A stretch of 60,330 bases of DNA, taken from positions 1 through 60,330 of IMG/VR virus record IMGVR_UViG_3300025120_000051; one strand, written 5' to 3'. The DNA comes from a virus. Its lineage: Duplodnaviria; Caudoviricetes. This document shows, in pieces, positions 2,952 to 59,159 of this stretch; the first letter of the stretch is position 1; each line of letters starts with the position of its first letter. The notes under the pieces are model-generated. The model was not told the DNA's origin and did no database searches. It was given only the letters and a program-made list of their open reading frames with translations. A program made the translations under genes and the position numbers.

Positions 2952-3391
2952 TATCTTTCACTGTCTTTTATCATATCATCTATAGCTTTATTATAAACTT
3001 TATCTGTGTATGATTTATTATTAAAAAACTTGCTTCTTTCTGAAGTAGGTAGATCTTCTTGAGCAAGCATTATTCTATATATTCTACTTATTAACTGACT
3101 ACATTTAAACGATGTTTTAAACACGTTGTACTTTATCGTAGTTCTATTACGATGCATGAAGGTTTCAATCCAACCTTCTCGCTTTAATCTCTCCCATCTG
3201 TTTTTATCCCAAGAATATGTATATACCCCATTTATAAAATCATTACGTGTGAATCTACCTTTGCAATCAAGGTATATTAACAACTCAAGATCTGCGTCTT
3301 TTAAATTATAAGTTTTACAGGCCCATTTTCTAATAAGCCTGTAATACTTTAATAAATTTAATTCCCTAACGTCTGAAGCATCTAGTCTCAT
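2951..3391 (-). CDS. Putative winged-helix DNA-binding protein
   Basis: LKDADLELLIYL...RWERLKREGWIE pattern is MarR/wHTH-like. Confidence 0.45.
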   Translation of the reverse strand: MRLDASDVRELNLLKYYRLIRKWACKTYNLKDADLELLIYLDCKGRFTRNDFINGVYTYSWDKNRWERLKREGWIETFMHRNRTTIKYNVFKTSFKCSQLISRIYRIMLAQEDLPTSERSKFFNNKSYTDKVYNKAIDDMIKDSER

Positions 3392-3645
3392 TCAACTATA
3401 ACTACATCACCATTTTTAATTACATAAAAAACTTTATCGTCAAACTCTATAGAATGACCAGCATGCTTATCATACCAAACAATATCTTCTTTGTTTATAC
3501 CTACAACTTGCTCGCCAATACTTATAACCTTACCTTTTAAGTACCTAATGTCAGTATTCTGCAACTCTGTCATTACAAACCCTGATTTAGATTTAGGTTT
3601 TTCTTTTATTTTATCTACAACTATATAATAATTAACTGCTTGCAT
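3388..3645 (-). CDS. groES: Co-chaperonin GroES
   Basis: 85 aa; mobile loop KSKSGFVM, GKVISIG, DVVIVE; adjacent to groEL. Confidence 0.9.
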   Translation of the reverse strand: MQAVNYYIVVDKIKEKPKSKSGFVMTELQNTDIRYLKGKVISIGEQVVGINKEDIVWYDKHAGHSIEFDDKVFYVIKNGDVVIVE

Positions 3646-5197
3646 TGTTCACTCTTCTATTACTTATTATACAATCTGCAGACACTATAGTCTTTACTAC
3701 ACTCACTGCATGTTTGAGCGCCGTTTTTGTAACCAAAACCGGATCTATTATACCATTTTTAATCATATTTACTTCTTCACCAGTTATAACATCTATACCA
3801 TAACCATCTTTTGAAGGTATATGAGGTGTTATGCCAGCATTATCAAGTATTGTTCTAAACGGTGATATAATAGCTTTACTTAATATCAACTCTCCATCAC
3901 TACCTTCAACTATTGTTGTTGCAGCATTTAGCAGAGCAATCCCACCACCAGGTACGATACCTTCTTGCAAAGCTGCTTTAGTAGCGTATATAGCGTCTTC
4001 TACTCTATCTTTTTTTTCTTTTAACTCAACTTGTGAGTTTGCACCTACTCTAACAATACCTACATTACCTGATAATATAGCTAAACGTTCTTGTAGTTTC
4101 TTTTTCATGAAAGGATCTTTTTGTTTTTCTATAGTTTTTTTAACTATATTTATTCTATCCTTAAATTGTGCTTCTGACTTGTCTACTGTTAGTATTGTGT
4201 TTTTGTTATCTGTAACACACTTAACTGCTTCACCTAAGAAGCTAGTGTCAACAAGATCAAAATCATCACCTAAACTTTCATTTATCAACTTAGCACCTGT
4301 AACAACAGCTAAGTCCTCCATTGTATCTTCTTTTGTTGGTCCAAAACCTGGAGAATCTATTATGTTTAGCTTTATGTTACCTTTTACTTTATTAGCTAAC
4401 AAGGCTGATTTAGGTACTTCTTCGACCTCACCTACTATAAGTAGTGATCTTTTCTTTTTAATAACATGTTCTAGTATAGGTTGTATACTTCTTATGCTTT
4501 GTATTGGCGTCACAGCTAATAGTACATAAGGATTATCTAATTCAGCAACCTCTCTACCTTTGTCAGTTATTAAGTAATTCGATGTTAGTGGACATTTTAA
4601 TTGTACTCCATCTACTACATCAGCATAAGTTTTATCTGTTTGTGACTCTTCTAACAGTACTACACTGTCTTTACCCACTCTATTATATGCTTCAGATATA
4701 ATTTTACCTAAAACCTTATCGTTATTACAACTAATCGTGCTAACGTGTTCTAGCATTTTACCAGATACATCTATCTTTATTTGGTCTAAATAATCATTAA
4801 CTTTACTTAAACCAGCATCAATACCTGCTTTTATATCTCTTATGTTATCTTTACCTTGATATTTTTCAATTTCACTTAACAGCGAGTAAGCAAGGACGGT
4901 TGCCGTAGTGGTACCGTCTCCTGCTTCTTTCACTGTGTTTCTAGCAGCTTCTTTGATAAGTGTCGCGCCTATATTCTCAACCGGATCATATAAGACTACA
5001 GATTCTGCAACTGTAACTCCGTCTTTTGTAATTACCGGTTTTCCGAGGGCATCCTCGTATATTACGCACTTACCAGAAGCGCCAAGGGTAGATTGAACTG
5101 CGTTTGCTAGCTGCTCAACTCCCAACATTATTTTACTCTTAGCATTACTGCCGAAAGTCAAATCTTTTACAATTTCACTTGGTTGATTGTATTCCAT
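3632..5197 (-). CDS. groEL: Chaperonin GroEL
   Basis: ITKDGVTVA, AGDGTTTATVLA, EGIVPGGG and GIIDP motifs. Confidence 0.97.
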   Translation of the reverse strand: MEYNQPSEIVKDLTFGSNAKSKIMLGVEQLANAVQSTLGASGKCVIYEDALGKPVITKDGVTVAESVVLYDPVENIGATLIKEAARNTVKEAGDGTTTATVLAYSLLSEIEKYQGKDNIRDIKAGIDAGLSKVNDYLDQIKIDVSGKMLEHVSTISCNNDKVLGKIISEAYNRVGKDSVVLLEESQTDKTYADVVDGVQLKCPLTSNYLITDKGREVAELDNPYVLLAVTPIQSIRSIQPILEHVIKKKRSLLIVGEVEEVPKSALLANKVKGNIKLNIIDSPGFGPTKEDTMEDLAVVTGAKLINESLGDDFDLVDTSFLGEAVKCVTDNKNTILTVDKSEAQFKDRINIVKKTIEKQKDPFMKKKLQERLAILSGNVGIVRVGANSQVELKEKKDRVEDAIYATKAALQEGIVPGGGIALLNAATTIVEGSDGELILSKAIISPFRTILDNAGITPHIPSKDGYGIDVITGEEVNMIKNGIIDPVLVTKTALKHAVSVVKTIVSADCIISNRRVNNASS

Positions 5198-9804: not shown

Positions 9805-10017
9805 ATGAGTGATTCAATAAAAGCATGGCACGAAATGCAAGAAGAAAATAAAGTATCTATATCCGTAGATAAAGATTTAATACTAGTAAATAAACTACTA
9901 GCGTTGAGTAACGAGCAAAAGCTATTAGATATAGATCAAGCTTTAAAAGAATATGAAGGTAATGTTGTAGATAAATGGCAACTTATCAACAGAATAGAGA
10001 AAATAATGTCGCGTTGA
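9805..10017 (+). CDS. Hypothetical protein
   Basis: ORF track. Confidence 0.7.
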   Translation: MSDSIKAWHEMQEENKVSISVDKDLILVNKLLALSNEQKLLDIDQALKEYEGNVVDKWQLINRIEKIMSR

Positions 10018-10081
10018 GGCGTGACAAACTCCTTCACGGGAATACACGGTTGCGCTCGTGCTGAAAACAAGTGAAGGATTA

Positions 10082-10167
10082 GGGAGTGATAAGGTAAGTA
10101 AAGCGAATAAATAACAGGTTACCGAGTCCAAATGCTTTAAACGGCGGTTCGATTCCGCCCACTTCCA
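10082..10167 (+). ncRNA. Miniature tmRNA-like RNA (tRNA-like domain)
   Basis: Acceptor GGGAGTG/CACTTCC with G3:U70 and A73; stemless D-loop; P2-like helix TAAAGCG/TGCTTTA; 3-nt AAC linker; T-arm GGCGG-TTCGATT-CCGCC. Confidence 0.7.
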
Positions 10168-10265
10168 CAATAAATGAATCCGAAGAGGTCAGTGTGCTTG
10201 ACACTGAACAAAACAAGCGAACACATGTCAGGCGAGTACTTCACAGAAAAACTAACGATGACTAA

Positions 10266-10386
10266 TAACTAGGTATGGTTAAGCGATTACCGGAGCGTAA
10301 GCTCGATCGTGGTGCGCAGAGCGTAAGCTCGATCGTGGTGCGCAGACTACCGACGGGTATGAGGTTCGATTCCTCACTAGTTACTA
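10266..10386 (+). ncRNA. tRNA-like RNA with non-canonical core
   Basis: TAACTAG/CTAGTTA acceptor-like stem; T-arm TGAGG-TTCGATT-CCTCA; internal GAGC-GTAA-GCTC hairpin; no recognisable anticodon arm. Confidence 0.6.
10293..10344. repeat. Perfect 26-bp tandem duplication
   Basis: GAGCGTAAGCTCGATCGTGGTGCGCA twice. Confidence 0.95.
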
Positions 10387-10404
10387 ACTTTAAATTAAAT
10401 AAAT

Positions 10405-11114: not shown

Positions 11115-11186
11115 TGCGCGGTAGAGCAGCGGTAGCTCGTTGGGTTCATATCCCAAAGGTCGGAGGTTCGAACCCTCCCTGCGCAC
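11115..11186 (+). tRNA. tRNA-Met(CAT), initiator type
   Basis: Full cloverleaf; GGG/CCC at the base of the anticodon stem and A11:U24 are initiator hallmarks; CCA not encoded. Confidence 0.92.
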
Positions 11187-11200
11187 CTAAAATAATAAAT

Positions 11201-22591: not shown

Positions 22592-24313
22592 ATGTGGAGT
22601 AACAGATGGAAAAAAGGAATAGACTACCCAGAGTGGGCTGAGTCTGATGTGTATAAAAAAACAATACAAGGTGGTTACTTATTATACGATGAAACACCTA
22701 AAGAAGCTTATCAACGCGTGGCTAAAACAGTTGCAAGACGATTAGATCGACCTGAGATGGCCGAAACATTTTTTGATTACATTTGGAAAGGCTGGTTATG
22801 TCTAGCTTCTCCTGTGTTATCTAATACTGGTACTGATAAAGGTTTACCGATAAGTTGCTTTGGTATCGATGTTGCAGATAGTATAATTGATATAGGCCAG
22901 AAAAACTTAGAAATGATGTTACTGGCTAAACACGGCGGTGGAGTTGGTATTGGTGTTAATCAGATAAGACCTGCTGGAGCTAAGATAACTGGTAATGGAA
23001 CTAGTGACGGTGTTGTGCCATTTTGTAAGATATATGACTCTACAATACTAGCAACAAACCAAGGGTCTGTAAGGCGAGGAGCTGCGTCAGTTAATATAAA
23101 TATTGAACACCCTGACTTTGAAGACTGGTTAGAAATTAGAGAACCTAAAGGAGATGTAAATAGACAATCACTAAACCTACATCAATGTGCTGTGGTTGGT
23201 GATAAGTTTATGAGAAAGCTTAGAGATGGTGATAAAGTTTCTAGACGTAAATGGGGTAAGTTATTACAAAAGCGTAAAGCTACAGGAGAACCTTATATAA
23301 TGTTTAAAGGTAACGTTAACAAGAATAACCCTTCTGCATACAAAGACAACGCTTTAAAGGTACATATGACAAACATATGTAGTGAGATAACTTTACACAC
23401 AGATGAGAACCACAGTTTTGTTTGCTGCTTATCTAGTTTGAACTTATCTAAATATCATGAATGGAAGAATAGTAACCTAATATACGACAGTATATGGTTC
23501 TTAGATGGAGTGTTAGAAGAGTTTATACAAAAAGCAAAGAACACTAGAGGATTTGAGAACGCTGTAAGATCTGCTGAAAAAGGTAGAGCTTTAGGTTTGG
23601 GTGTAGTCGGATGGCATACTTATTTACAACAGAAAGGTTTACCTTTCGAAGGATTATTAGCACAATATGAAACAAGAAGAATATTTTCACAAATCAAAAT
23701 TGAATCAGAAAGAGCTAGTATGGCTTTGGCTGAAGAATTTAATGAACCGCTTTGGTGCGTCGGCACAGGTTTTAGGAACACACATCTCAGAGCTATTGCT
23801 CCTACTGTTAGTAATAGTAAGTTATCTGGGAATATTAGTCCTGGAATTGAGCCTTGGGCTGCTAATGTATTTACAGACCAGTCTGCTAAAGGCACGTTCA
23901 TACGTAAGAACCCTACGTTGGAGAGCGTATTAATAGAAAACAATTTAAACAATAAAAAAATATGGGACCAAATCTTAAAGGACGGGGGCTCGGTGCAGGA
24001 CATCAAAGCATTAGAGAAAATTACATTGGGCGATCACGATATACCGCTCAAAGAAGTCTTCAGAACTTTCAAAGAAATAAACCAACTAGAACTAATTAAT
24101 CAAGCTGGTATACGACAACAGTATATAGACCAGAGTGTTAGTTTGAATCTAGCGTTTCCATCTGAAGCTGAACCTAAGTTTATAAACAAGGTTCATCTAG
24201 ATGCTTGGAAAAAAGGTATTAAGACTTTGTATTACATGAGGACCGAATCGGTCTTGAGAGGAGATATAGCAGCAAACGCAACCGATGAAAGTTGCGTAAG
24301 TTGCGATGGATAG
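22592..24313 (+). CDS. nrdA: Ribonucleotide reductase class I alpha subunit (no ATP cone)
   Basis: PISCF, GGGVG, TNICSEI, AIAPT, LYY, C-terminal CVSC. Confidence 0.97.
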   Translation: MWSNRWKKGIDYPEWAESDVYKKTIQGGYLLYDETPKEAYQRVAKTVARRLDRPEMAETFFDYIWKGWLCLASPVLSNTGTDKGLPISCFGIDVADSIIDIGQKNLEMMLLAKHGGGVGIGVNQIRPAGAKITGNGTSDGVVPFCKIYDSTILATNQGSVRRGAASVNINIEHPDFEDWLEIREPKGDVNRQSLNLHQCAVVGDKFMRKLRDGDKVSRRKWGKLLQKRKATGEPYIMFKGNVNKNNPSAYKDNALKVHMTNICSEITLHTDENHSFVCCLSSLNLSKYHEWKNSNLIYDSIWFLDGVLEEFIQKAKNTRGFENAVRSAEKGRALGLGVVGWHTYLQQKGLPFEGLLAQYETRRIFSQIKIESERASMALAEEFNEPLWCVGTGFRNTHLRAIAPTVSNSKLSGNISPGIEPWAANVFTDQSAKGTFIRKNPTLESVLIENNLNNKKIWDQILKDGGSVQDIKALEKITLGDHDIPLKEVFRTFKEINQLELINQAGIRQQYIDQSVSLNLAFPSEAEPKFINKVHLDAWKKGIKTLYYMRTESVLRGDIAANATDESCVSCDG

Positions 24314-27451: not shown

Positions 27452-27910
27452 TTATATAACCATGTATTTAGTTTTATTGTTTTTATCTTTGTATGCTTTT
27501 AAGCATCGATTTCTATTAACCTCTGCGCTAACATAGCTAACGTGGATCCAATCTGGGTTTGCAATTGTTCCAAATTCCCATATCATTTGATCAAAGTTTA
27601 AATTGTTTTTGATATATTCATACATATCAGCGTTGCTCATATAAGAATATTTATCATCAATATCCATAGCTTGACCGTTGCAGTGCTGAGATTTTGAGCT
27701 ACCACCAATAGCTTTATTAAGTTCAGGTCCACGATAAAAAGAATTTATCTTTATAGGACCGTTTACGTGAGCTCTAAGAGGTTCGAATACTTTTTCGCAT
27801 AGTAACTCCATGTTTTTAATATGGTCTTCTGTAGGTGTGTTATTTAAACCAAGACGTTTCGCTGTTATGCTATACACGCCTTCCTTCATACTTACATTTT
27901 TACTTAACAT
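27452..27910 (-). CDS. Endolysin, peptidase M15 family
   Basis: INSFYR..LNKAIGGSSKSQHCNGQAMD..WIHVS; start reassigned to MLSKNVS. Confidence 0.9.
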   Translation of the reverse strand: MLSKNVSMKEGVYSITAKRLGLNNTPTEDHIKNMELLCEKVFEPLRAHVNGPIKINSFYRGPELNKAIGGSSKSQHCNGQAMDIDDKYSYMSNADMYEYIKNNLNFDQMIWEFGTIANPDWIHVSYVSAEVNRNRCLKAYKDKNNKTKYMVI

Positions 27911-28127
27911 CTTTCTTTTTTCTGCCTTTTCTAGCTTTACCTTTAATAGCATCGCCTATGTCTCCAGCTTGGTTACCAACTTCTTTTACGGCCTCAGCAA
28001 CATCATTAATCTCAGCTTTAACAGCTTTAACTCTTTTTCTAGCTTCTTTAACAGTTGCAACTACTTTTTCATCTATAGTTGTTTTACTAAATACCCAGTC
28101 CCAAAATACTCTAATTACTTTTTTCAT
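27900..28127 (-). CDS. Small amphipathic/coiled-coil protein next to endolysin
   Basis: MKKVIRVFWDWVF followed by heptad-like region and basic tail. Confidence 0.65.
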   Translation of the reverse strand: MKKVIRVFWDWVFSKTTIDEKVVATVKEARKRVKAVKAEINDVAEAVKEVGNQAGDIGDAIKGKARKGRKKKDVK

Positions 28128-28827: not shown

Positions 28828-29232
28828 TTAAAACGATGCTTCTTTTCTAACTTCTTCTATTGATTTTTTTATTTCTTGTAAGTCAGTTGGCAACAACAAG
28901 TCTAAACCAGCTTTGAATACTCTTTCTTTTGATCCTTCTTTGAATATTATAATAGTAGGTGCCATACGTACTCTGTACCTTTTCTTAGCTTCTGGTGCAT
29001 CGGCTATGTTTACCCTATAGTAAGGTACATCTAACTTAGCCCACTCAGCAAAGCAATTTTCTTTATTAAACTCTGCCCAAAACTCTACCACAACAATGTC
29101 TTTTTCTTCAAAACCGTCACCGTTGATAGCTTTGTTAAAGTTAGCATCATTAACCCAGTATTTTTCAGGCACATCTGACTGTGCGTAAATGTTTAAACTT
29201 AATAATATTAAAATAAATTTAATTAATTTCAT
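28828..29232 (-). CDS. Exported thioredoxin-fold protein lacking canonical CxxC
   Basis: Signal peptide; VVVEFWAEFNKENC; cis-Pro loop YRVRMAPTIIIFKEG. Confidence 0.75.
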   Translation of the reverse strand: MKLIKFILILLSLNIYAQSDVPEKYWVNDANFNKAINGDGFEEKDIVVVEFWAEFNKENCFAEWAKLDVPYYRVNIADAPEAKKRYRVRMAPTIIIFKEGSKERVFKAGLDLLLPTDLQEIKKSIEEVRKEASF

Positions 29233-29234
29233 GG

Positions 29235-29519
29235 TTATCTGTTTTTTTGCATTTCATATAATCTTTCATCTAGCTTTTCTAGCTTGTCTAGAATCATATC
29301 AACATCTTCTTGCGTATCCATTATTGTTTGTCTTATCAATTCGTCCTTTAAATCGTACTCAACTCTTTCTATTGGTGGGTGAGGAAGCTCCATAGCGCGA
29401 GCTATATCTGCCTGCATAACGAAATACATACTTGATAATGATATGGTAAAACCAACCACCATACCTATAGTTTTTAAATCTAGAGTTACCTTTGTTTTCT
29501 CTCCTATTTCGTTTGCCAT
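29235..29519 (-). CDS. Single-pass membrane protein with C-terminal coiled coil
   Basis: Hydrophobic residues ~17-35, then heptad-rich tail. Confidence 0.7.
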   Translation of the reverse strand: MANEIGEKTKVTLDLKTIGMVVGFTISLSSMYFVMQADIARAMELPHPPIERVEYDLKDELIRQTIMDTQEDVDMILDKLEKLDERLYEMQKNR

Positions 29520-29523
29520 TTTT

Positions 29524-30741
29524 TTATTTTAAAGTGTAGTTTAATCCTATTGATGTATTGAATAATTCGCTATCCCACATTTTAGCATATTCACCTTCGA
29601 TAAATATACCTAAGTTTTTATTTATTTTCCAACCAAGATTTATTCCAGCATTGTAATCTTCCCACTGTTGTAATTCTGAGTCCTGTACTAAACCTCCTTT
29701 ACCCCAATTGTTTCTATTAAGGTAACTAACGGCTTCGTCTCCTTTTATATATTTGTGATAAGGTAGTATATAATTTGCGTATGCATGAAGCCAGAAACTA
29801 TTTTTGTAGTGGTAAAAATCAACTCCGACAATAGGTGCAATTTCACCAAAAGCATCTAACAAGTCCCATTGCTCTCCGTTGTATCTATTCATTAGATCTG
29901 TAAACACAGTTTCTCTAAACTCTAAATCACTATCAGCTACTCTGTTTCCTTCTTCATCAATCCAATACCAATCACTAGTTTCATTACCAGCTTCATCTGT
30001 AGATGTGTAGTATATATCATCATAACCATATTCAAAACCTAGCGTATACCACGGGTTGACTGGGTATTCATATTCATTACCTTGTGAATCAGTGTATACT
30101 TCTGTTTCGTTTAACCATATTTCTACTGGATTATAACCGTAAGCTCTATCGTGTGTACGGTATATTGCACCTGCAGATATACTAAACTTTTCACCAAGAG
30201 GTAATCTAGCTCTTACTTCTGCTGATTGATATTTTAGGTTTATCTTAGAAACCTCTCTTGATTCTGCTTTTACAATGTGATATTTACCTGTATGCTTTAA
30301 AAAGAATCTATGATTTTCAAACATCTCGCCTCTCCATCTTTCTTTTTCTACATGAAATTGATATTCTAAACCTTTAAAAGCAGATGTAGGTGCGGAAAAA
30401 GCTAATTGATTTTCTGTACCGTCGTAAAAGTTTTTAGGTTTTCTTTCATAGCTAAATCTAGCTAGTTTTCTTATACCAAAACCTAACCTATAATCAAAAG
30501 GATAGTCAGGAGTATCATCTACCACAACCGGTATATCATATAGTCCATCACCCTCGCCAGTTCTTACAAAAAATACGTTCTCATTTGCTTCTATAGAATT
30601 AGAAACATCAGCAGCTCCGTATATAGTACCGTACTTTATAAAGTCTTGGTATAAAGATTTAAATAAGTTTTTCTTTTCTTCAATTTGTGCAGAAGAAGTT
30701 AGGGTTGATAGTAAGAGTACTATAAATAGCAATTGTCTCAT
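29524..30741 (-). CDS. Exported protein, probable outer-membrane beta-barrel
   Basis: Signal peptide (..TSSA/Q); alternating aromatic beta strands; terminal strand TSIGLNYTLK. Confidence 0.6.
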   Translation of the reverse strand: MRQLLFIVLLLSTLTSSAQIEEKKNLFKSLYQDFIKYGTIYGAADVSNSIEANENVFFVRTGEGDGLYDIPVVVDDTPDYPFDYRLGFGIRKLARFSYERKPKNFYDGTENQLAFSAPTSAFKGLEYQFHVEKERWRGEMFENHRFFLKHTGKYHIVKAESREVSKINLKYQSAEVRARLPLGEKFSISAGAIYRTHDRAYGYNPVEIWLNETEVYTDSQGNEYEYPVNPWYTLGFEYGYDDIYYTSTDEAGNETSDWYWIDEEGNRVADSDLEFRETVFTDLMNRYNGEQWDLLDAFGEIAPIVGVDFYHYKNSFWLHAYANYILPYHKYIKGDEAVSYLNRNNWGKGGLVQDSELQQWEDYNAGINLGWKINKNLGIFIEGEYAKMWDSELFNTSIGLNYTLK

Positions 30742-36700: not shown

Positions 36701-39631
36701 CTGAGCTGGGCTCATGTTTTTACCACCGTGAAAGTTTTTATTTTTACCATCTACAAATCTAACATCATACCCTTTGTACAAAAACTCACCTTTTTCGTTT
36801 CTACCAACAGCTTCTTGTATTATTTTTTGAAAAGGCTCTGTGTATCTTTTTTTAAAGTTAGATTCAAACTCAGGGTTTTTAGTATCTAATTCATTAGCCA
36901 TTTCCTCTAGTATAACCATTTGAGCAAATGTGTCTTTAGTTTCTTGATAACCATCATATTTAGATTTCTCCTCTTTAGATAGTTCTTCGTATTTTCTGCC
37001 GTTTAAGATTTTATCTTGAGCTTCTTGAAGTTCTAAAGACGCTCTTTGTTTAGCACCAGTTGTCATTAAATCTACACCTAAACCTACTTTACCGTTAGGC
37101 TTAATTCTAAATGCTTTAACATTGTGAGCTCCAACTAAACCGAAAACAAGAGAATTAGTAACAAGTCGTTGTGTTACATCTGACATATCACCATACATGT
37201 CGTTAAACTCTGCTTTAAAATCCTTAACATCCATAAAATCTTCGTAAGCTAACTCAGTGATGCTAGCTAACTCCATAGAAGCAGCACCAATTGGGCCTGC
37301 TTTAACAACTTTGTTGTGTAGGTTGTTTAACCATTTAAACCTTCCAGTAATGTTAAAATACGGTTGAGCTAAAACACCACCTGTGTAAAAAGCAGCACCT
37401 GATGTAGGTTTAAAACCAACACTTTGCATTTTAATTTCTTCCACAGCTACCATACCTAGATGACCTAACATTTTTTTAACTCTACTACCTGATCTTATCA
37501 TTCTACCTAAAGCAGCTGGAATACCAGTTCCTTTTGTTATAGCACCAATAACAGCTAGCTCGGTAAGCATTGGCGCGAAATGACCAACACCTTCTGAAAC
37601 GTTTTCAGACATACTTCTTGCTAGTTGATCTTTTTGGTCATCAGTAAATTGTAATGATTTTACCTCGCCTTTTTCTATTTTATCTTTATTCTGTATATTG
37701 TAATCTGATTGAAACTCTTGAATTTCATCTAATAAAAACCTATTAGTGTTTGTTTTACCAGTTATTTTAGCTAAATTTTCATCAGCTTCTATTTCAGTAT
37801 TACCAAAAAAATGAGTTCCAAAAGCTTTAACTCCAGTATTAAACATACTACCAAAAAAACCTGATTTTTCAAGCTTAGATGGATCTATGTCTAATTCGTG
37901 AAGTTTAAACATTGCTCTTCTAGCTCCTAGATTATCATCTAAAGCAGCGTCGTGAGTTTCTATCCAATCTTTATCTTCTTTACTTAAAGCACCACTAGCT
38001 CTGTTAAGTACTCCAAACCCATCAGCATCTCTACTAGATAATCCATTTTTATGCATTGTTGCATAATCACCTTCCCAAACGTAAGTAAAATCTACTGTGT
38101 CATTCTTTAAATTCTCTTTGAATGAAACGTCTACGCCAGGTAAATTTGAAAGTTTCGACGAAGGGTATGATGTAGTAATATTAATCTTTATATTTTTATC
38201 TTTTGCCTCTTGCTGTAAGTTAAAATACCTTTTGAATAAACCATCATAATGAATATCCATAGCTTCACGATCGCTAAGCATTGCATTACCAGCCTTGTTC
38301 TTTACAAGCGCGATGTTGTTTTCTTGAGAATTTTTAGTTAACTTTGCAGATGCAGCTATTCTGTCAGCAGACGCTTGGGTGTAACCTTGTTTAACATAAT
38401 AATTACTACCAAGCTCTTCATCGTCAAGCGCTATGCCTTTTATAACGTTTTCTGATGCTTTTATTATTTTCTCCTCTACTTTTATTTGCTCTTTTAAAAC
38501 TTCAACGTCTGCACCTCCAGCGTCTAATCTTGCTTCTAAATCTTTTATTTTATCGTAAGATTTTCTAAGTATTTTTACATTTAAATGTTTTATCTGAGCA
38601 TTTTTATTACCCTCACCTTCTACAACGTTACCTTGGTCATCTCTTTTTATACCTAGCTCTTTATCTATAAAGTTTTTATAATAAGGAGTTTCAAATACTT
38701 TTTTGTCTTTTTGATCAACTTGAGCCTTAACAAAGTTCCAGTATTCTTCTTTTTCTTTAGCTTCAACAAGTGTTGTTTGAAACATTCCTTTAGAAGCTAC
38801 ACTACCGTTTATAAATTTAACAAACTGATCTTTAGTAAGTTTAGTTCCGGTTTTTTCCTTAATTTGCTCATAAAGAGTGTCATTGATTTTTTCTCTATTA
38901 TCACCCATCATTACATCAAGCTTATTAGTATCGTAACTATGAGCTTCACCTATACCGTATTTTGCAGGGTTGTCGTATATTTCTCTTAAGTTGTTTTTGG
39001 TAACGTCTGCCAATTTGTTAACCTCTTCTGCAGTTAATGGAGTTTTTATATTGTTGTTTGTGTAATTAGAAGTAGGAATACCCATACTGCTAGCGCCGTA
39101 CGATGTTCTTGGTTTTGGTGTTGATTTATCTTGAGTTGTTACAGTTGGGTAATCTTGAGGTAATAAGCCTGTTTTTTTAAATGCTTGCTTTTCACCCTCG
39201 GTTGAAGTATTATTTTCTTCTATAAACTTAATAAAACTATCGTATTGAGAATCTTGTTGATCCCTTTCATTTCCGTAATTCCAAAATGATTTTAAAGTAA
39301 ATGTTTCAGACTTTTTGTTAGGACCAGTTACACTTATTCTGTCAAGACCAGGTGTAGACTCCTCAAACTTATAAGGTAAGTCTTTGTATTTCTCCTTTAA
39401 CTTCTCAACAACCTTTCCCTCAGCATCACCACCATCTCTATCTCCAATATCAAAATCATCCATTGATATATGGTTATACGGTGATGGTGCTTCTGTGTTG
39501 TCACTTTCTGTTTTTTCAACAAAGTCAGTTACACCAAAAGCTTCTTTAAACTCTTCTATGCTCATACTTAAGTTAGCAGCTTCTCGTTGAAGGTAACTTA
39601 AATCAACTTGTCGTCCGTTTATTTCAAACAT
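30784..39631 (-). CDS. Giant internal virion (ejection) protein, ~2910 aa once the 115-bp duplication is removed; appears as ORFs 33695-39631 and 30784-33690
   Basis: Both ORFs share MWGVEGG...DFIKN through the duplication; zincin HEMIGH, sigma-2-like segment, HAD DFDDTL, helical C-terminus; follows two other internal-protein-like genes. Confidence 0.75.
33597..33826. repeat. 115-bp tandem duplication with 4 synonymous differences
   Basis: 33597-33711 versus 33712-33826; same peptide encoded; causes a frameshift. Confidence 0.93.
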
Positions 39632-44083: not shown

Positions 44084-47000
44084 TTATATGAAACATTGTC
44101 CGTTTACTGTCGTGATTATTCCACTTGAGTTTATAGTGTAAGCTATGTGAGTCGATCCGTTGTAAACAACTATAAAACCTGCTCCCAATGTTGTTGTCAA
44201 CGTAGAGTTTGTATATATTTTGTTATTCACAAACAAATTAGTAGACGTTGGCATTCCATTAAGACCTGCAGTATGCTTGATAGCATAATACGTGGTTGCT
44301 GCAGCTCCACCAACTGCTGCGGTACACACTGAATTTTGTCCAGAACTTGTGGCTACCCACCACGCACTTATATCTTGAACAGCTAAAGGAGTTATATATA
44401 TGGGCTGACCAACACCTGAGCTACTAGACAAATTACCATTATCTACAACACTCCAACCTAAACCTACACTTTGGCTATATATACCATCGCTGTGTGCGCC
44501 AAATATTGAATCAAAGTTAAAACTTGAGCTAGTACCTAGTTTCCAGTTTCCATCAGTAGGCGCGCTATTTATAGTAAAAGAACTAGCATCTACACCTTCT
44601 AAGCTTGCTGTCATTCCAAATCCATTATTGTTGAAGTCTGAAGCCCCGTTAACAGCTGTTAGGTCAGCAAATTTTGGAGTACTAGCAAGCGTGTTGCTAG
44701 GCATTATTAAACCACCCGGGTTTGCAGCTGTTGGAGCTACATTCGTTATAGTCACCGTTAAAGGGTTTGGTGTTGTCCCTGTTACAGCGTTACTTTGCAC
44801 AGCTCTAATAACCAAGTTGTATATATCATTAGAGTTGTTGTTGTAAAACGCGAACAAACTATTTGATTTTAACATCCAATTTCTTTGAATATAAGTTGGT
44901 ACATTTGTTGTTTGATCAGCTGCTGAAAAAGCTTGTATTCTATTAGTACCACCAGTGTCAGTAATGTTAACAACAACAACAGATTTAATAAATGCATTAT
45001 TATTAACACTCGCGGAATGTCCTTGGTAAAACACCACTCTGTACCACCCATTACCATTAAAGTTAGTTGGAAAATCGATTCCTCCAACCTGCCCTGTTGT
45101 TAGTGCGGTTATATATTGCGGTGCTAATCTAAATTTAAACATTCCAGAAGCTCCGTCAAGTAAAGATTGTTGATTTGCTATAGAAGCTGATGATTTAACC
45201 GTAGATATTCTAACATAAGATTTGTCATCTTCAAAAGCAATACTAAATTTATTTAAATCACTACCATCATTAGCGCTATTAGAAACACCTAATATTGAAA
45301 AGCTGGTTATAGTTGGTGAGCTACCGTCATTATATGGTGTAGCTGTTAGCTCGCCTATTTGAGCACCACTTCTTGCTTTTTCTAAAAGTGGAGCATTTAA
45401 TGATGCTACAAAACCACTAGCGCTAAAAGTAGGTGTTATTTGTATGTTTGTTGGGCCATTTGAAGCGTAATCACAATGTTCGTTTAAATCTCTAACCAGT
45501 CCACAGCTAGATGTTTCAAAATAAATATCAAGCTTTGACTCAAAAGGTTTTGTTTCAAAAACAGTTAAACCTTTATCTTTGCTTTTAGGGTAACCAAATG
45601 GCATATCTGAATTTAAATTGTTTGTAGTCCTTATAACATCAGTTCCATTCGCATCAAACTCTCCTAGAACATTTACTGGTTCATTATAAAGGTTTGGTAT
45701 TTCAGCTACTTGAGGATTTTTATTGTGATCCGCTAAAAAGCTATAAACTCTTAGTCTGTCAGGAAAAAGAGATGGAGTAATATTACCACTACTATCAACC
45801 TGTTTAGCGTTTGACAAACTAGATAAACCTTGATCCGTAGCGGAACCTATACTAAGAACCGAAATGTAAGGCTGGTTAATATTATCGTTTATTATTGAAT
45901 CATAGTGATTGCTTGCGTTTGATGTGGTTATTTGTACAACTTTAGGGTATAGTTTTTCTTCTGATGAAGAAACACCATCCCTGTTTTCGTCGCTTGTATT
46001 TAATGATCTAGGTACTTTGTTAATGTTATCGTTTGTTAAAGAGAAAAAACTTCTACTATCAGGACCAGTACTCCATTCACCTTGTATACTCTGTTGCTTA
46101 TAACCAGAAAAGCTTGTTACTTCTGAATTATCAACCGTCCAATTGTTCATAGGGTGAGAAGTGTAGATGTTGTAATAGTCTTGCTCAGACTGCTTAACTA
46201 CTAGTCTCCAAGAGTACCACCCGTTTGGGTTTGTAAGCGAATGTGTTTTATTAGATTCAACTATTCTAGAATCTTTAAACTCTACAGATAACGCTTGACC
46301 ATAAGCAGCATGTTGCGTGCTCCAGCTATATGCGCTACTAAATTTAGCACTTAAATCTTGACCAAGAGCATCAACAGTGTGTGTATCTGATAAATTAGCT
46401 ATTTTATAAGTAGATGGTATAACCGGTGAAGTTCTACCGTATTTATCAACAAGAACCATTCCAACTTTATAAGTTCTTCTTTGTTTTAAATTATGATACT
46501 TGTACTGTTCTCTATTGTGAAAATAGTGACCTATATCATTAGCATCGTAACCTACTTCATTTTCTCCTTTTGGTCCACTAGTAACTATAAATTTAATACC
46601 TTTTTTATTATCTTCATCATTAGGTAAATCATAACCTAAAGTTATATTACCATAAACTAATCTATTTCCAACAACCTCTTGAGCTTTTGCCCTAACAGGA
46701 ACGTTATCACCTACTCTTATCAATTGTCTTTCTGGAAGAACCTTAAAAGCTTCTTTGGCTAAGTAAGTATACTCAACAGTTTGCCTGTAATAATGCCCGC
46801 TAGATTTAGGTTTAACCTTGTATCTACCAAAGGTTAAATCTGTTATATTCACCATGTCAATAATGTCAACTATTTGAATAGACAAAGTTCCAGCTTCTCT
46901 TAATAATATTTCAATATTTTTTATTTTTAACTCATTAATGTAAGAGTTTGCGCTTACGTTACCTGGTGACGTCTCGTGTTCTGTGGGAATACCACCGGTA

Positions 47001-56132: not shown

Positions 56133-58349
56133 TTATTTGTTTATTATTTTTGACGTTTCTCCTTTATTACTATACTTAGATAAACCAAAGGATATTTTTA
56201 TACTTTTTTTATCAGCAACAGGTTTATACAAGTTTCTATTACAAGCCATTATAGCAAGCCCAGAACTAATCGTTGCATCAAATTTTGTTCTATTATTTAT
56301 ATCAAAGCCAGACCAATCTGCTAGTGTTCTGTTAAAATACATGTCACCATAAGTGTTGTCTTCTTTTAAACCTACGTATTTTTGTATGTAAGTTTCTATA
56401 GCTGCGGCGTGTGCTTGCCTTATATCTTCACTAGAATTAGGTATTCCACCTATTTCCTTTTCAGCTGTTGATAATTTATTCCAAATTTTATCAGGTCTAT
56501 TCATACTAAAACCTCTGTAACCTCTTCTTTTAAAATAATATAGTAGTCTTGGTTTGTTGTTTTCACACAATAAAGGCATGCCATAAAAAACACAAGCCAT
56601 TAAAACATCTTCAAAAAACATTTCTGCCGTCTGTGGTCTAGCTACATATTCTAAGAAAAACTGGTTTGGTGGAACATTTTCCATACTAAACTTAGTTAAT
56701 CCATGTAAAGCTCCATTAGAACCCTTACCATCTACTGTTCCTGATATATCATAACTATCACATCCTAAAGCTCCAACATGCTCGTTTCCAGGATATTTTT
56801 TGCCATTGCGAGTGATTACGTTGTTTTGCATATTCCCATCTGGAATCCAGCTAACGTAAAACCTACCACTTGAATTAGGGTTAAAAACAACTCTAGTGTC
56901 TTTAATTCCATTAACCCACTGAAAACTACCCTGCGTAACTAAGTGTGACTTAGTAGTATCGTTTATATAATCTATTTGCTCGTATATTTTAACTAAATTA
57001 AATATACTATTTTTTGTCTCATCTCTAAAAGCATGATCTTCACTTCTAGGAAATTGTCTATAAAATTCATTTAAAGCGTCTTGATCGTTTTTTAAACCAT
57101 CAACTTCATTCTGCCAGTGATCTATTACACCTACATCTATTAACTCTCTGTCTGGTCCAAAGACATCATTGTTTGGATTATTAAATACTGGAAGTCCGTA
57201 CTCATCAATAAACCCTTCGTAGTTCCACTCCATTGGGACAAAAAGAGAATATAATCCAGACTTTGTTTGTCCATTTGCATTTCGTTTTGTAACATCTGAG
57301 CTATCATATAATTTCTTAAAATTATCTCCTCCTTTGTCTAAAGCATTTGATGTTGAACCCATCATACACTTACCTATAATCCTAGCACCTAGTCTAAGGG
57401 TGGTTTTCGTAACACGCCAGTTGTTGAGGATGTTGTTCGGGCGTTCCCATTTCCCACTCTCATCGTGGACGAGGAGTTTGAGTTTCTCCCCATCGTAGGA
57501 GTTATCACCGGTGTTCTTCCAATCGATCGTGGTGTCAAGACCCTGTAGGGCTTCGGGTTTGTCGGAACTGACAATACTCCGTCTTGTGAGCTTGGACGCG
57601 GGGACACGGAAGGCAAGCTCGGTCTTTGGACGGTCCATTCCGTCCTGGATAGGTTTGAAAAAGAATGGGTAATTAACGGATATCGGTACCACTTTATCTG
57701 TGAACATCTTTTTCGCATCGGGTCCAGACTTAGATAAAATACCATATCTGGAGTCGCTAGATATGGTTGCCAAGTTAACCACCTCTCCTGATGCCATAAA
57801 GGAAAAGCCTGATCGACGATTCTTAAGGTAGCACAGTCCGTACGATCGTACATCGGCCTTGCAAGCTTCCCAGAATATATAGAATAATCTATTTGCTTCC
57901 CGAAAGTCTGGTTTCCCGACGTCAATCTTAGACCACTGCAAGTACATATAGTGAGTGCCAGTAATATAAGTAGACTTACTTTTGTTAAAGTACCAAAAAC
58001 CTTCTTCTCTTTTTTTAAATTCATCTTCTATGTAGTCTATATATTTCTTTTTGAAGTTTTCAGGATAGCTTTTCCAGTCAAAAATAGTTTTAATTCTATC
58101 TAACTCTTTAGGGTATTCTGTTACTTCCCACTTATTTTCTTTAAACTTATGAACAAGTTTAGGTTGTTTTGGTAAAGCTATTTTAAGATTTTGAATATCG
58201 TATATCTCTCCAATTTCACCTGTTTTAGATATAACAACAACATCATGCTCTTTGTTATATCCATACTTCCATTTTTTAGACTTGTTAAGTCTTTTAATGG
58301 TGTTTATATTTATAGGTTCTACAACCTTATATAAGCTCTGCTCGTACAT
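56133..58349 (-). CDS. terL: Terminase large subunit
   Basis: LKNRRSGFS (Walker A), LLVHDESGKW (Walker B), GST, nuclease GCDSYD..ENN..FDATISS. Confidence 0.93.
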   Translation of the reverse strand: MYEQSLYKVVEPININTIKRLNKSKKWKYGYNKEHDVVVISKTGEIGEIYDIQNLKIALPKQPKLVHKFKENKWEVTEYPKELDRIKTIFDWKSYPENFKKKYIDYIEDEFKKREEGFWYFNKSKSTYITGTHYMYLQWSKIDVGKPDFREANRLFYIFWEACKADVRSYGLCYLKNRRSGFSFMASGEVVNLATISSDSRYGILSKSGPDAKKMFTDKVVPISVNYPFFFKPIQDGMDRPKTELAFRVPASKLTRRSIVSSDKPEALQGLDTTIDWKNTGDNSYDGEKLKLLVHDESGKWERPNNILNNWRVTKTTLRLGARIIGKCMMGSTSNALDKGGDNFKKLYDSSDVTKRNANGQTKSGLYSLFVPMEWNYEGFIDEYGLPVFNNPNNDVFGPDRELIDVGVIDHWQNEVDGLKNDQDALNEFYRQFPRSEDHAFRDETKNSIFNLVKIYEQIDYINDTTKSHLVTQGSFQWVNGIKDTRVVFNPNSSGRFYVSWIPDGNMQNNVITRNGKKYPGNEHVGALGCDSYDISGTVDGKGSNGALHGLTKFSMENVPPNQFFLEYVARPQTAEMFFEDVLMACVFYGMPLLCENNKPRLLYYFKRRGYRGFSMNRPDKIWNKLSTAEKEIGGIPNSSEDIRQAHAAAIETYIQKYVGLKEDNTYGDMYFNRTLADWSGFDINNRTKFDATISSGLAIMACNRNLYKPVADKKSIKISFGLSKYSNKGETSKIINK
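57389..58024 (-). CDS. Candidate overprinted gene inside terL (signal-peptide/lipoprotein-like)
   Basis: 211-codon alternative frame coinciding with a visibly GC-enriched patch; basic then hydrophobic N-terminus ending ICTCS; P/S/R/T-rich tail. Confidence 0.5.
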   Translation of the reverse strand: MNLKKEKKVFGTLTKVSLLILLALTICTCSGLRLTSGNQTFGKQIDYSIYSGKLARPMYDRTDCATLRIVDQAFPLWHQERWLTWQPYLATPDMVFYLSLDPMRKRCSQIKWYRYPLITHSFSNLSRTEWTVQRPSLPSVSPRPSSQDGVLSVPTNPKPYRVLTPRSIGRTPVITPTMGRNSNSSSTMRVGNGNARTTSSTTGVLRKPPLD

Positions 58350-58624
58350 TACTTAGATCTTTTCTCAGCAAAACCTGAAAAAGCTTTTTCTTCAACAACC
58401 TTACTAGTTGTACCATCTATCATGTCTTGCTCTTCCTGCAGCCTATTTAATATTTCAAAAGCATCAAATATAGCTAGCTTTTTAGTCGCAGCAGCATTCT
58501 TCAATCTATCTGCTGTTATATCATCACCTGAGTCAACTATCGCTTCTTTAGCTACCTTTATTAACTCTTCAACAGCTTTGTGCCCAGCTAGGATTATATT
58601 CTTTTTCGTTTCCTTTACGTTCAT
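58349..58624 (-). CDS. Probable terminase small subunit
   Basis: Helical 91-aa protein whose stop overlaps the terL start. Confidence 0.55.
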   Translation of the reverse strand: MNVKETKKNIILAGHKAVEELIKVAKEAIVDSGDDITADRLKNAAATKKLAIFDAFEILNRLQEEQDMIDGTTSKVVEEKAFSGFAEKRSK

Positions 58625-59159
58625 ATTTTATTTCTATTAAACTTGATTTAATTTTGTAAAGAAGCTCGCCATCAATAACAAACTCGTGCTCGATATTATT
58701 TCTAAAACCGACAAGTTCATTTTGTTTATAGCCAGCACTACAGTACTTAATAACGCCAACACACGCTTTTTCCGCAGCTATGCTATACACGTTATCACTT
58801 TGTATAGGTTTTATAAAAGAGTAACCATCAACAGCTTTCCATTTGTCAGTATTTTTATATAAAAATATACAATCTAAAGGACAATAAAATAAATCTTCTT
58901 GTATAAAAAACCTACTATTTTTTGCTTTTCCATTGTTATCATAAGAGCTTCTGAATATGTTATGATGTATAACAACTTCATCTCCTACTTTCATACTTGT
59001 GTTACAATGTCTAGGTAAAGCAACTATAATAGCTGTTCTATTTATACTTTTGTGATCTTCTATTCTAGTATTTATGATCAACTCTTCACTGCCTATTTTT
59101 TTAATATTACTATACCTGTTACCAACTGGTTTTATAATAAAATCAAATAACCCTTGCAT
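58569..59159 (-). CDS. GroES-like fold protein (two tandem units)
   Basis: IIKPV..IVALP..KVGDEVVIHHN, then FIKPI..GVIKY..LVGF..EFVIDGELLY. Confidence 0.55.
   Translation of the reverse strand: MQGLFDFIIKPVGNRYSNIKKIGSEELIINTRIEDHKSINRTAIIVALPRHCNTSMKVGDEVVIHHNIFRSSYDNNGKAKNSRFFIQEDLFYCPLDCIFLYKNTDKWKAVDGYSFIKPIQSDNVYSIAAEKACVGVIKYCSAGYKQNELVGFRNNIEHEFVIDGELLYKIKSSLIEIKYERKGNEKEYNPSWAQSC

Follow-up and report, generated by a model that had tools for sequence, protein, structure and literature searches.

A probable 211-codon gene overprinted on the terminase large subunit gene of marine Flavobacteriia-type podophages

Can a frame of 211 codons that lies wholly inside the gene for the terminase large subunit (terL), on the same strand, be a gene in its own right? 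This question is raised by an IMG/VR virus record (IMGVR_UViG_3300025120_000051, Caudoviricetes, estimated completeness 84%), whose 60,330 nucleotides (nt; 34% GC) constitute the window analysed here and provide all the coordinates given below. The terL gene of this window, an open reading frame (ORF) of 738 amino acids (aa), lies on the minus strand at 56133-58349 and was recognised by PHROGs (phrog_6681, E 5.4e-163, residues 25-734). A preliminary description of the sequence had pointed to a second ORF nested in it, and had proposed that its product was an exported protein or a lipoprotein of the o-spanin type. In large double-stranded DNA phages, overlapping genes of some length are considered rare, and annotation pipelines throw them out. 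From the comparison of this locus with its relatives, we consider it quite probable that the hidden ORF is a real, selected and translated gene, which overprints the centre of terL in the +1 frame.

Selection holds a second frame open inside terL

The hidden ORF occupies 57389-58024 on the minus strand, with an ATG start at 58022-58024, 211 codons and a TAG stop at 57389-57391. An in-frame TAG (58028-58030) lies one codon upstream of the ATG. As the ORF starts 325 nt past the start of terL, it is read in the +1 frame, and the positions 1, 2 and 3 of its codons correspond to positions 2 and 3 of a terL codon and position 1 of the next one. The third position of terL is thus the second position of the hidden codon, and it therefore sets the chemical class of the hidden residue: C or G would give Ser, Thr, Pro, Ala, Arg or Gly, and A or T would give stops, charged or hydrophobic residues. 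At its 3' end, the ORF stops only 9-11 codons short of a limit set by TerL itself. The residues Met329-Met330 (ATG ATG; 57360-57365, minus strand), just before the residues GST, produce a +1 TGA at alignment column 354 in all 81 sequences compared below. This TGA is forced under any codon choice, and the hidden ORF could therefore never extend past it in the 3' direction.

The composition of terL changes over this ORF. In 200-nt windows, the GC content is 0.43-0.52 at 57300-57800 vs. 0.26-0.37 nearby. In windows of 30 terL codons, the GC content at the third codon position (GC3) is 0.10-0.33 outside and 0.40-0.67 within a tract of GC-rich synonymous codons that extends on the minus strand from about 57990 down to 57400 (57400-57990), and it falls to 0.27 and then to 0.10 immediately past the hidden stop. 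No other gene of 200 codons or more in the window contains so long an open stretch nested on its own strand: this one has 212 codons and the runner-up 90. When the synonymous codons of the whole terL gene were shuffled (n = 300), the longest +1 stretch had a mean of 65 and a maximum of 120 codons, and none of the 300 shuffles reached 212. We also permuted the synonymous codons within the GC-rich region only, which preserves both the TerL protein and the local codon usage. With this method, 5.8 +/- 1.5 stops were predicted where none is observed, and not one of 1000 shuffles matched the window. The runner-up of 90 codons, also in the +1 frame, lies in the ribonucleotide reductase large-subunit gene (22592-24313, plus strand), for which the null mean is 47 codons and 2 of 300 shuffles were equally long (p = 0.007).

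We then codon-aligned the terL gene of the window with the best 80 of at least 600 TerL matches in IMG/VR (75-89% aa identity; n = 81 with the window); numbers such as L001 denote the IMG/VR loci of this comparison. Carriers of the hidden ORF, the window included, number 22 out of 81. In each of them the +1 frame has 210-258 open codons and closes at column 343 or 345 of the alignment. Each also has an ATG past the last stop on the upstream side and ahead of the hydrophobic segment described below. In 38 other sequences (non-carriers), no +1 stretch exceeds 100 codons and the region contains 6-19 stops. The 21 others are intermediates, 17-18 of which retain the N-terminal part and are shortened at columns 209-333. 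Internal +1 stops are absent from each of the 22 carriers, against 3.6-6.5 expected from 1000 region shuffles (p <= 0.006 each), although the carriers are kin to one another, so that these per-sequence p-values are not independent and count for less in favour of a gene. In non-carriers, the number of +1 stops (6-18) is roughly that expected from the shuffles (10-18). In each carrier, 21-29 of the approximately 380-400 possible single changes that are synonymous in terL would create a stop in the hidden frame. The +2 frame of the carriers is full of stops (15-26), and the avoidance of stops is therefore specific to one frame. Forced stops (a Met followed by a codon starting with A) are found in no carrier and in 3 of the 38 non-carriers, a number so low that this comparison is uninformative.

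The GC3 of carriers is 0.41-0.53 inside the region vs. 0.18-0.33 in its flanks, and most non-carriers are without such a rise. In the shortened versions, GC3 is higher before the first stop than after it in 16 cases out of 17 (means of 0.40 vs. 0.30; flanks 0.27). Between carriers, 31-60% of the codons for the same amino acid differ, and dSN amounts to 1-2 substitutions per terL-synonymous site. The carriers are thus saturated at synonymous sites and are not recent copies. Over such a distance, a GC-rich patch in a genome of 34% GC should have decayed if nothing maintained it. The same-strand alternative frame and the GC-rich codons that revert at its stop were both as the preliminary description had reported them. 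The link it had drawn between the two is supported as well, since the open frame, its boundaries and the GC3 rise travel together across the 81 terL genes.

The prevalence of the hidden protein was also assessed. In a collection of 5.8 billion proteins, 68 unnamed predicted relatives were found, most of them of 210-220 aa. A second scan of IMG/VR, with an alignment of the hidden proteins as query, returned at least 589 matching stretches. Among the best 80 of these, terL is uninterrupted in 79, and the hidden frame has 200 open codons or more in 75. The GC3 rise is seen in all 64 stretches with a complete terL gene (0.51 inside vs. 0.21 outside), with 5.1 stops expected. This sample, picked by similarity to the hidden protein, is biased; it indicates prevalence and does not constitute an independent test.

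The deduced product has 211 aa, a Pro content of 8.5%, four Cys and an isoelectric point of 10.3 (10.0-11.7 in the family). It is laid out as MNLKKEKKVFGTLTK / VSLLILLALTICTCSGL / a tail rich in S, T, P and R, and also in L, with a net charge of +14 (+13 to +31 in the family). A basic n-region (residues 2-15, NLKKEKKVFGTLTK; 57980-58021, minus strand), with a net charge of +4 including Met1, precedes the hydrophobic segment (residues 16-32, VSLLILLALTICTCSGL; 57929-57979, minus strand; mean Kyte-Doolittle value 2.3), which lies over terL residues 124-140 (STYITGTHYMYLQWS region). The hydrophobic stretch itself covers 16-17 residues, with K or R on either side, and the best 17-residue window reaches at least 1.7 on the Kyte-Doolittle scale in 52 of 54 family members. 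The segment ends with a near-invariant C-T-C-S-G (residues 27-31; 57932-57946, minus strand), conserved at 90% or more in 40 aligned family proteins and found in 49 of 54 in a larger set; this motif demands the rarer terL codons TAC, TTG and CAG. The middle of the protein (residues 33-165; 57530-57928, minus strand) is fast-evolving, basic and rich in S, T, P, R, W and Y, with a P-rich indel region. The C-terminal part (residues 166-211, ...GRTPVITPTMGRNSNSSSTM...RTTSSTTGVLRKPPLD; 57392-57529, minus strand) is conserved and has the highest GC3; within it, T198-G203 are conserved at 90% or more in the same 40 proteins.

The codon choice of terL differs between carriers and non-carriers in a way that depends on the part of the hidden protein. 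In the hydrophobic core (columns 142-158), the fraction of terL codons ending in A (A3) is 0.01 in carriers vs. 0.29 in non-carriers, and the fraction ending in T (T3) is 0.47 vs. 0.40. In the tail (columns 301-343), T3 is 0.16 vs. 0.37 and the fraction ending in C (C3) is 0.38 vs. 0.12. The codon bias is opposite in the two parts of the ORF and favours first a hydrophobic helix and then a hydrophilic tail, as would be expected if selection acted on the hidden protein. All 22 carriers have an uninterrupted hydrophobic segment, whereas stops or Q, H, N, K or E break it in 36 of 38 non-carriers. The hidden tail of carriers contains 23% of F, L, I, M and V and 38% of S, T, P, G and A; the same frame in non-carriers would contain 40% and 15%, respectively, plus 5% of stops.

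We also used a synplot-like measure, i.e. the ratio of observed to expected synonymous diversity given the codon usage of each group. In carriers, hidden residues 1-49 have ratios of 0.40-0.58, apart from one window at 0.76, and residues 168-204 have ratios of 0.43-0.68, apart from one window at 0.80. In non-carriers, it is 0.72-1.11 over both end spans and 0.86-0.97 over columns 301-337. In the middle of the ORF, the ratio of carriers is mostly 0.7-0.9, near the non-carrier level. Over columns 128-181, dSN is 0.98 in carriers vs. 1.89 in non-carriers.

These observations show that the GC3 patch is the footprint of selection on the hidden frame. Selection holds this frame open, with its start and stop positions fixed, in many diverged genomes. 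Acting on the synonymous sites of terL, it yields an N-terminal hydrophobic segment ended by CTCSG, a basic tail of low hydrophobicity rich in S, T, P, G and R, and a conserved C-terminus of approximately 45 aa.

Alternative explanations and expression of the hidden frame

A non-coding origin of the open frame, the main rival explanation, has to be weighed against this. A GC-rich segment of terL could have been recombined from a relative of higher GC content; with fewer codons ending in A or T, it would contain fewer +1 stops, and the long ORF would be a by-product of chance. The terL gene is mosaic: in sliding comparisons, the best matches of the window in the overlap are other carriers (identity 0.83-0.93; the nearest are L005, L059, L002 and L027), whereas its flanks are nearest to L001, which is also the best match downstream. 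A higher GC3 reduces the expected number of +1 stops from 10-18 to 4-6, a GC-richer relative with 186 open codons exists (L074, GC3 of 0.42 outside the region), and the hidden frame as a whole gives no sign of amino-acid constraint. However, when the local codon usage is kept, 3.6-6.5 stops are still predicted and none is found in any of the 22 carriers. The carriers are saturated, and yet they keep a GC3 of 0.41-0.53 in genomes of about 34% GC, in which neutral decay should have erased the patch. Moreover, the bias over the hydrophobic segment is not directed toward GC (T3 is retained at 0.47 while A3 drops to 0.01), and the boundaries of the patch coincide with those of the ORF, shortened versions included (16 out of 17). 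We regard such a by-product as improbable. The recombinant tract from a higher-GC phage, which the preliminary description had itself raised as an objection, is only partly borne out: the tract is recombinationally mobile, but it is old, its nearest matches are carriers at 93% identity or less, and no high-GC donor was found among the 80 relatives or two outgroups.

The hidden sequence could also be translated as part of a fusion. In this case, slippage of the ribosome or of the RNA polymerase into the +1 frame, for instance at the run of seven A at about 58007-58013 (TTTAAAAAAAG) located at the ORF start in the window, would join TerL residues 1 to about 110 to the hidden sequence. In 7 of 22 carriers, the +1 frame is indeed open further upstream, from columns 82-105. 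However, the A-run is not conserved among carriers, an in-frame ATG precedes the hydrophobic segment in 22 of 22, and an N-terminal placement is what suits a signal or anchor sequence. The conserved ATG, together with a +1 stop directly upstream of it (column 125) in 14 of 22 carriers, makes a frameshift fusion very improbable. Scarcely credible, finally, is a structured RNA or a DNA site (for packaging or regulation) over which the open frame would be incidental: the 636-nt tract of the window folds somewhat better than its shuffles (z = -2.38, with only 20 shuffles) and near-identical nucleotide stretches occur among carriers at the 3' end, but RNAalifold gave a weak consensus for 21 carriers (649 columns, -28 kcal/mol with a covariation term of -2.6, compensatory changes in 4 of 63 pairs), no Rfam match was found, and such an element predicts neither a stop avoidance specific to one frame, with 15-26 stops in the +2 frame, nor a loss of A3 over the hydrophobic segment only.

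Several results nevertheless weigh against the hidden ORF being a gene. The ORF is absent from 38 of the 81 relatives, and L001, the closest to the window by its flanks, has a shortened copy; the ORF is therefore dispensable, or decaying in places. An OLGenie-like estimate of the ratio of nonsynonymous to synonymous substitutions in the hidden frame (dNN/dNS) is 0.93 in carriers (confidence interval 0.73-1.23) and 0.97 in non-carriers. Purifying selection at the amino-acid level is thus undetectable overall by this estimate, a test of low power because synonymous sites are saturated and terL is highly constrained. In six close pairs of carriers, the ratio of synonymous divergence between the region and its flanks is 0.44-1.76, with no drop (0.92-1.32 in 11 pairs of non-carriers). 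The suppression of synonymous variation, which the preliminary description had proposed as a test, is hence found at both ends of the ORF in most windows, but neither in its middle nor between close pairs. Likewise, the preservation of the frame that it had asked of terL homologues holds, with the same start and stop, in 22 of 81 sequences, but not in the 38 that lack the ORF. Stops do interrupt the frame in many close relatives, L001 among them; the GC patch is missing where the frame is broken, and the idea is thus not refuted.

The hidden protein is also without a family match in Pfam, PHROGs, NCBIfam and PADLOC, and a tblastn search found no match in 50,697 isolated phage records. No neighbour was found in the ESM Atlas, with a recognition score of 1882, below the 2300 reached by most real families. 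AlphaFold2 predicted a helix at residues 3-34 only, with a predicted local distance difference test (pLDDT) score of 40.8. The genuine ATPase region of terL, folded as a control from a similarly shallow alignment, fared no better (pLDDT 32.7); the fold result for the hidden protein is therefore uninformative and is no evidence of disorder. Lastly, no conserved internal promoter was identified. TAnnTTTG, the Bacteroidetes -7 promoter motif, occurs at column 106 in 7 of 22 carriers and in 23 of 38 non-carriers. Its copy located 54 nt upstream of the ATG of the window was rejected as evidence of a promoter, as it derives from conserved TerL residues.

With no sign of a dedicated promoter, translation would need an internal start on the terL mRNA. 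We suppose that the hidden protein would be made from this late mRNA by internal initiation at the conserved AUG. In Bacteroidetes, internal initiation without a Shine-Dalgarno sequence is reported to be the rule (PMC6847099), which makes such a start plausible. Contigs from two metatranscriptome runs, which belong to relatives, cover 57306-57942 at about 90-94% identity, and attest only the presence of the region in an RNA library.

Host gene, distribution and possible function

By PHROGs matches, the window encodes a portal protein, a terminase, structural proteins, GroEL/GroES-like chaperonins, a ribonucleotide reductase, a holin-like protein and an endolysin. In blastn, parts of terL match Flavobacterium Elemovirus phages and an uncultured podovirus with 65-72% identity, and the stretch is present in marine metagenomes. 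The overprinted ORF belongs to a marine, Flavobacteriia-type podophage lineage. Two motifs of TerL lie inside the overlap: KNRRSGFS (residues 176-183; 57801-57824, minus strand), which we take to be a Walker A-like motif, and KLLVHDES (residues 291-298; 57456-57479, minus strand), presumably Walker B with the catalytic Glu. In 28 TerL proteins, K176, R178, R179 and G181 of the former, D296 and E297 of the latter, and likewise G331, S332 and T333 are invariant, which is compatible with the motifs of terminases. On this reading of the motifs, the overlap may be taken to sit in the ATPase domain of terL. This domain was not recognised by Pfam (E <= 10, 28 TerL) or by sequence and profile searches against the PDB, and a profile comparison with T7 gp19 by hhalign gave no match, the two families being too distant to align. 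Of all these comparisons, only the PHROG match of the whole protein was positive, and the AlphaFold2 model of the ATPase region was too poor for searching.

Some features of this genome are noted apart from the hidden ORF. Many marine, estuary and viral metagenome runs have in common a near-constant share (about 14%) of the sampled terL 31-mers, which suggests a short near-identical terL stretch common to many relatives. Other local rises in GC content, against about 0.34 overall, are found at 10001-10400 (0.45) and at 801-1600 and 44401-44800 (0.41-0.43); the first one lies between small ORFs, approximately 700 nt upstream of the sole tRNA (tRNA-Met, 11115-11187). A GroEL-like chaperonin (phrog_5725, E 2.9e-131) and two GroES-like proteins are encoded at 3388-5197 and 58569-59159 on the minus strand, one GroES-like gene being located just upstream of terL.

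The distribution of the hidden ORF does not follow the terL phylogeny. In a tree of the terL flanks, carriers are scattered and at least eight changes between carrier and non-carrier are needed; the carrier L008 is sister to the non-carrier L015 (support of 99), and the window pairs with the shortened L001 as its sister. When the tree is built from codon positions 1 and 2 of the overlap, carriers cluster more, with five changes, and the nearest sequence to the window is the carrier L005. Both are quick FastTree trees of unknown root, which has to be added to the points on the negative side. Because carriers cut across the flank phylogeny, the hidden gene either moves by homologous recombination within terL or has been repeatedly lost. 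It appears to behave as an allele of the central segment of terL, exchanged by homologous recombination and repeatedly lost. Two outgroups suggest that it was gained within this lineage: MW202828 (64% TerL identity) has 11 stops and no GC3 difference, and Elemovirus elemoF (47% TerL identity) has 14 stops, with neither the hidden ORF nor the GC3 rise. Two non-carriers that are identical in the compared terL columns (L006 and L007) have an intact hydrophobic segment, no codon ending in A in columns 135-165, stops right behind this segment and a GC3 of 0.18 elsewhere, as if recombination had broken the gene immediately after its N-terminal part, or as if the rest had recently been lost.

What could such a protein do? 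Its basic n-region is followed, near the N-terminus, by a hydrophobic h-region that exceeds the 10 residues expected of Sec signal peptides and signal-anchors, and from this layout we infer targeting to the cytoplasmic membrane. The N-terminus would bring the hidden protein there in either of these two forms. Provided that the gene is real, its product is likely to be membrane-bound or exported. The C-S-G sequence fits the -3/-1 rule of signal peptidase, and a Pro as the next residue blocks signal peptidase I; the residue following C-S-G is Pro in 22 of 49 family members. The constraint on the first 50 or so and on the last 45 or so residues, with a free middle, suggests an anchored protein with a short C-terminal motif, whose tail would work through composition and short motifs and not through a fold. 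That the protein acts late and at the envelope, in lysis timing, in envelope disruption or in excluding other phages, is a tentative proposal, to which we give somewhat less than an even chance, the o-spanin contributing a minute share of it at most. As the hidden gene is dispensable and mobile, an accessory late function at the envelope would be favoured, such as lysis modulation or competitor exclusion, and this is a guess.

The o-spanin itself, i.e. an Rz1-like lipoprotein of the outer membrane whose gene would lie in terL instead of in an i-spanin gene, was suggested by a nested same-strand ORF with a hydrophobic N-terminus followed by Cys and a remainder rich in Pro, Ser and Thr, and PHROGs recognised no spanin elsewhere in the window. 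The basic N-region, hydrophobic core, Cys, aromatic middle and P/S/R/T-rich tail of the preliminary description stand, but its imperfect lipobox was generous. The canonical pattern [LVI][ASTVI][GAS]C is present in none of 54 hidden-frame proteins and a PROSITE-like lipobox in one of 54; the residue before either Cys is I, L or T, in the context L-[IT]-[ITL]-C-T-C-S-G. The o-spanins are small mature proteins of some tens of residues, rich in Pro, with Cys for disulfide-linked dimers; the hidden product has 8.5% of Pro and four Cys, but its 211 aa are several times the Rz1-type size. Moreover, no i-spanin gene neighbours the ORF, the lysis genes being elsewhere (holin-like gene at 2374-2829, endolysin at 27452-27952), and absence from about half of the close relatives would be odd for a core lysis function. 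A better spanin-like candidate lies near the endolysin, at 29235-29519. The product does not resemble either of the two spanins, and the lipoprotein and o-spanin reading is not supported and most improbable.

This candidate at 29235-29519 (minus strand) encodes a spanin- or holin-like protein of 94 aa, unnamed by PHROGs, which starts with a hydrophobic, TM-like segment and continues in a charged tail of helical appearance. On either side of it, the genes at 28828-29232 and 29524-30741 (minus strand) encode proteins with signal-peptide-like N-termini (MKLIKFILILLSLNIYAQ... and MRQLLFIVLLLSTLTSSAQ...), which are candidate envelope or lysis proteins that PHROGs also leaves unnamed. All three genes are upstream of the endolysin gene.

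A more complete scenario, which we consider unlikely as a whole, is that of an accessory gene born de novo inside the catalytic core of terL, borne by a terL allele, mobile and spread by homologous recombination among phages of marine Flavobacteriia, and encoding a membrane-anchored late effector of the envelope. The N-terminal helix and the short C-terminal motif would then act at the envelope in the manner of phiX174 E, in lysis timing or in exclusion. Located inside the essential terL, such a gene could never be lost by simple deletion, and the expression of a packaging gene would be coupled to a function at the envelope.

Comparison with known nested genes

The hidden ORF resembles genes 19.2 and 19.3 of phage T7, which are also same-strand, in the +1 frame and nested in terL (gene 19). 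In the T7 RefSeq record (NC_001604), they lie at 38016-38273 and 38553-38726, inside 37370-39130, and are annotated as hypothetical proteins. They differ by their size, with 85 and 57 aa vs. 211 here, and BLASTP of the hidden product against T7 gp19.2 gave no similarity (E 0.64). A literature search found no paper on T7 gene 19.2 or gene 19.3. To our knowledge, no conservation or codon-usage footprint has been described for these two genes, which were not examined here.

Lambda Rz1 and the o-spanin gene 18.7 of T7, the latter within 18.5, are likewise fully nested same-strand genes of a late operon. Their products are secreted and rich in Pro. In these cases, however, the host gene encodes the functional partner, and the nested one is a core lysis gene for a small lipoprotein with a canonical lipobox, whereas the hidden ORF is nested in terL, has no canonical lipobox and is found in only part of its lineage. 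Another comparable case is the lysis gene E of phiX174, a +1-frame gene born inside the essential morphogenesis gene D, which encodes the scaffold. The function of E resides in its N-terminal transmembrane segment, and its C-terminal part is basic and tolerates changes. The pattern of constraint of the hidden ORF matches that of E only at the N-terminus, since the C-terminal 45 aa are also constrained here. In addition, E has 91 aa and belongs to a 5-kb single-stranded DNA phage without holin or endolysin, unlike this 60-kb phage with a holin-like protein and an endolysin.

In the mycobacteriophage Patience, same-strand out-of-frame embedded ORFs were found to be translated by mass spectrometry and were not conserved, according to the published report (PMC4324244). 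The hidden ORF differs from these in that its frame, boundaries and composition are conserved across hundreds of contigs. In our full-text literature searches, no gene nested in the terL of marine or Flavobacteriia phages was found to have been described.

The hidden ORF would thus be a 633-nt gene located over the most conserved part of an essential enzyme, unnamed in all the catalogues searched, although marine viral contigs that contain it number in the hundreds. The closely related terL genes that have or lack it constitute a natural experiment on the birth of an overprinted gene and on its cost to the host gene, and a system in which to study accessory functions that travel inside core genes by recombination. 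The system is also suited to asking how frequently a local anomaly of GC3 or codon usage in AT-rich phage genomes betrays a hidden gene, a cheap signal that could be screened at scale. Should the product act at the envelope, it would be a new player in lysis or exclusion among phages of Bacteroidetes, a field that is still poorly known. The putative gene joins the known nested same-strand genes of phages, among which it stands out by its unusual length, its position over invariant putative Walker motifs, its strong codon-usage footprint and its presence/absence polymorphism.

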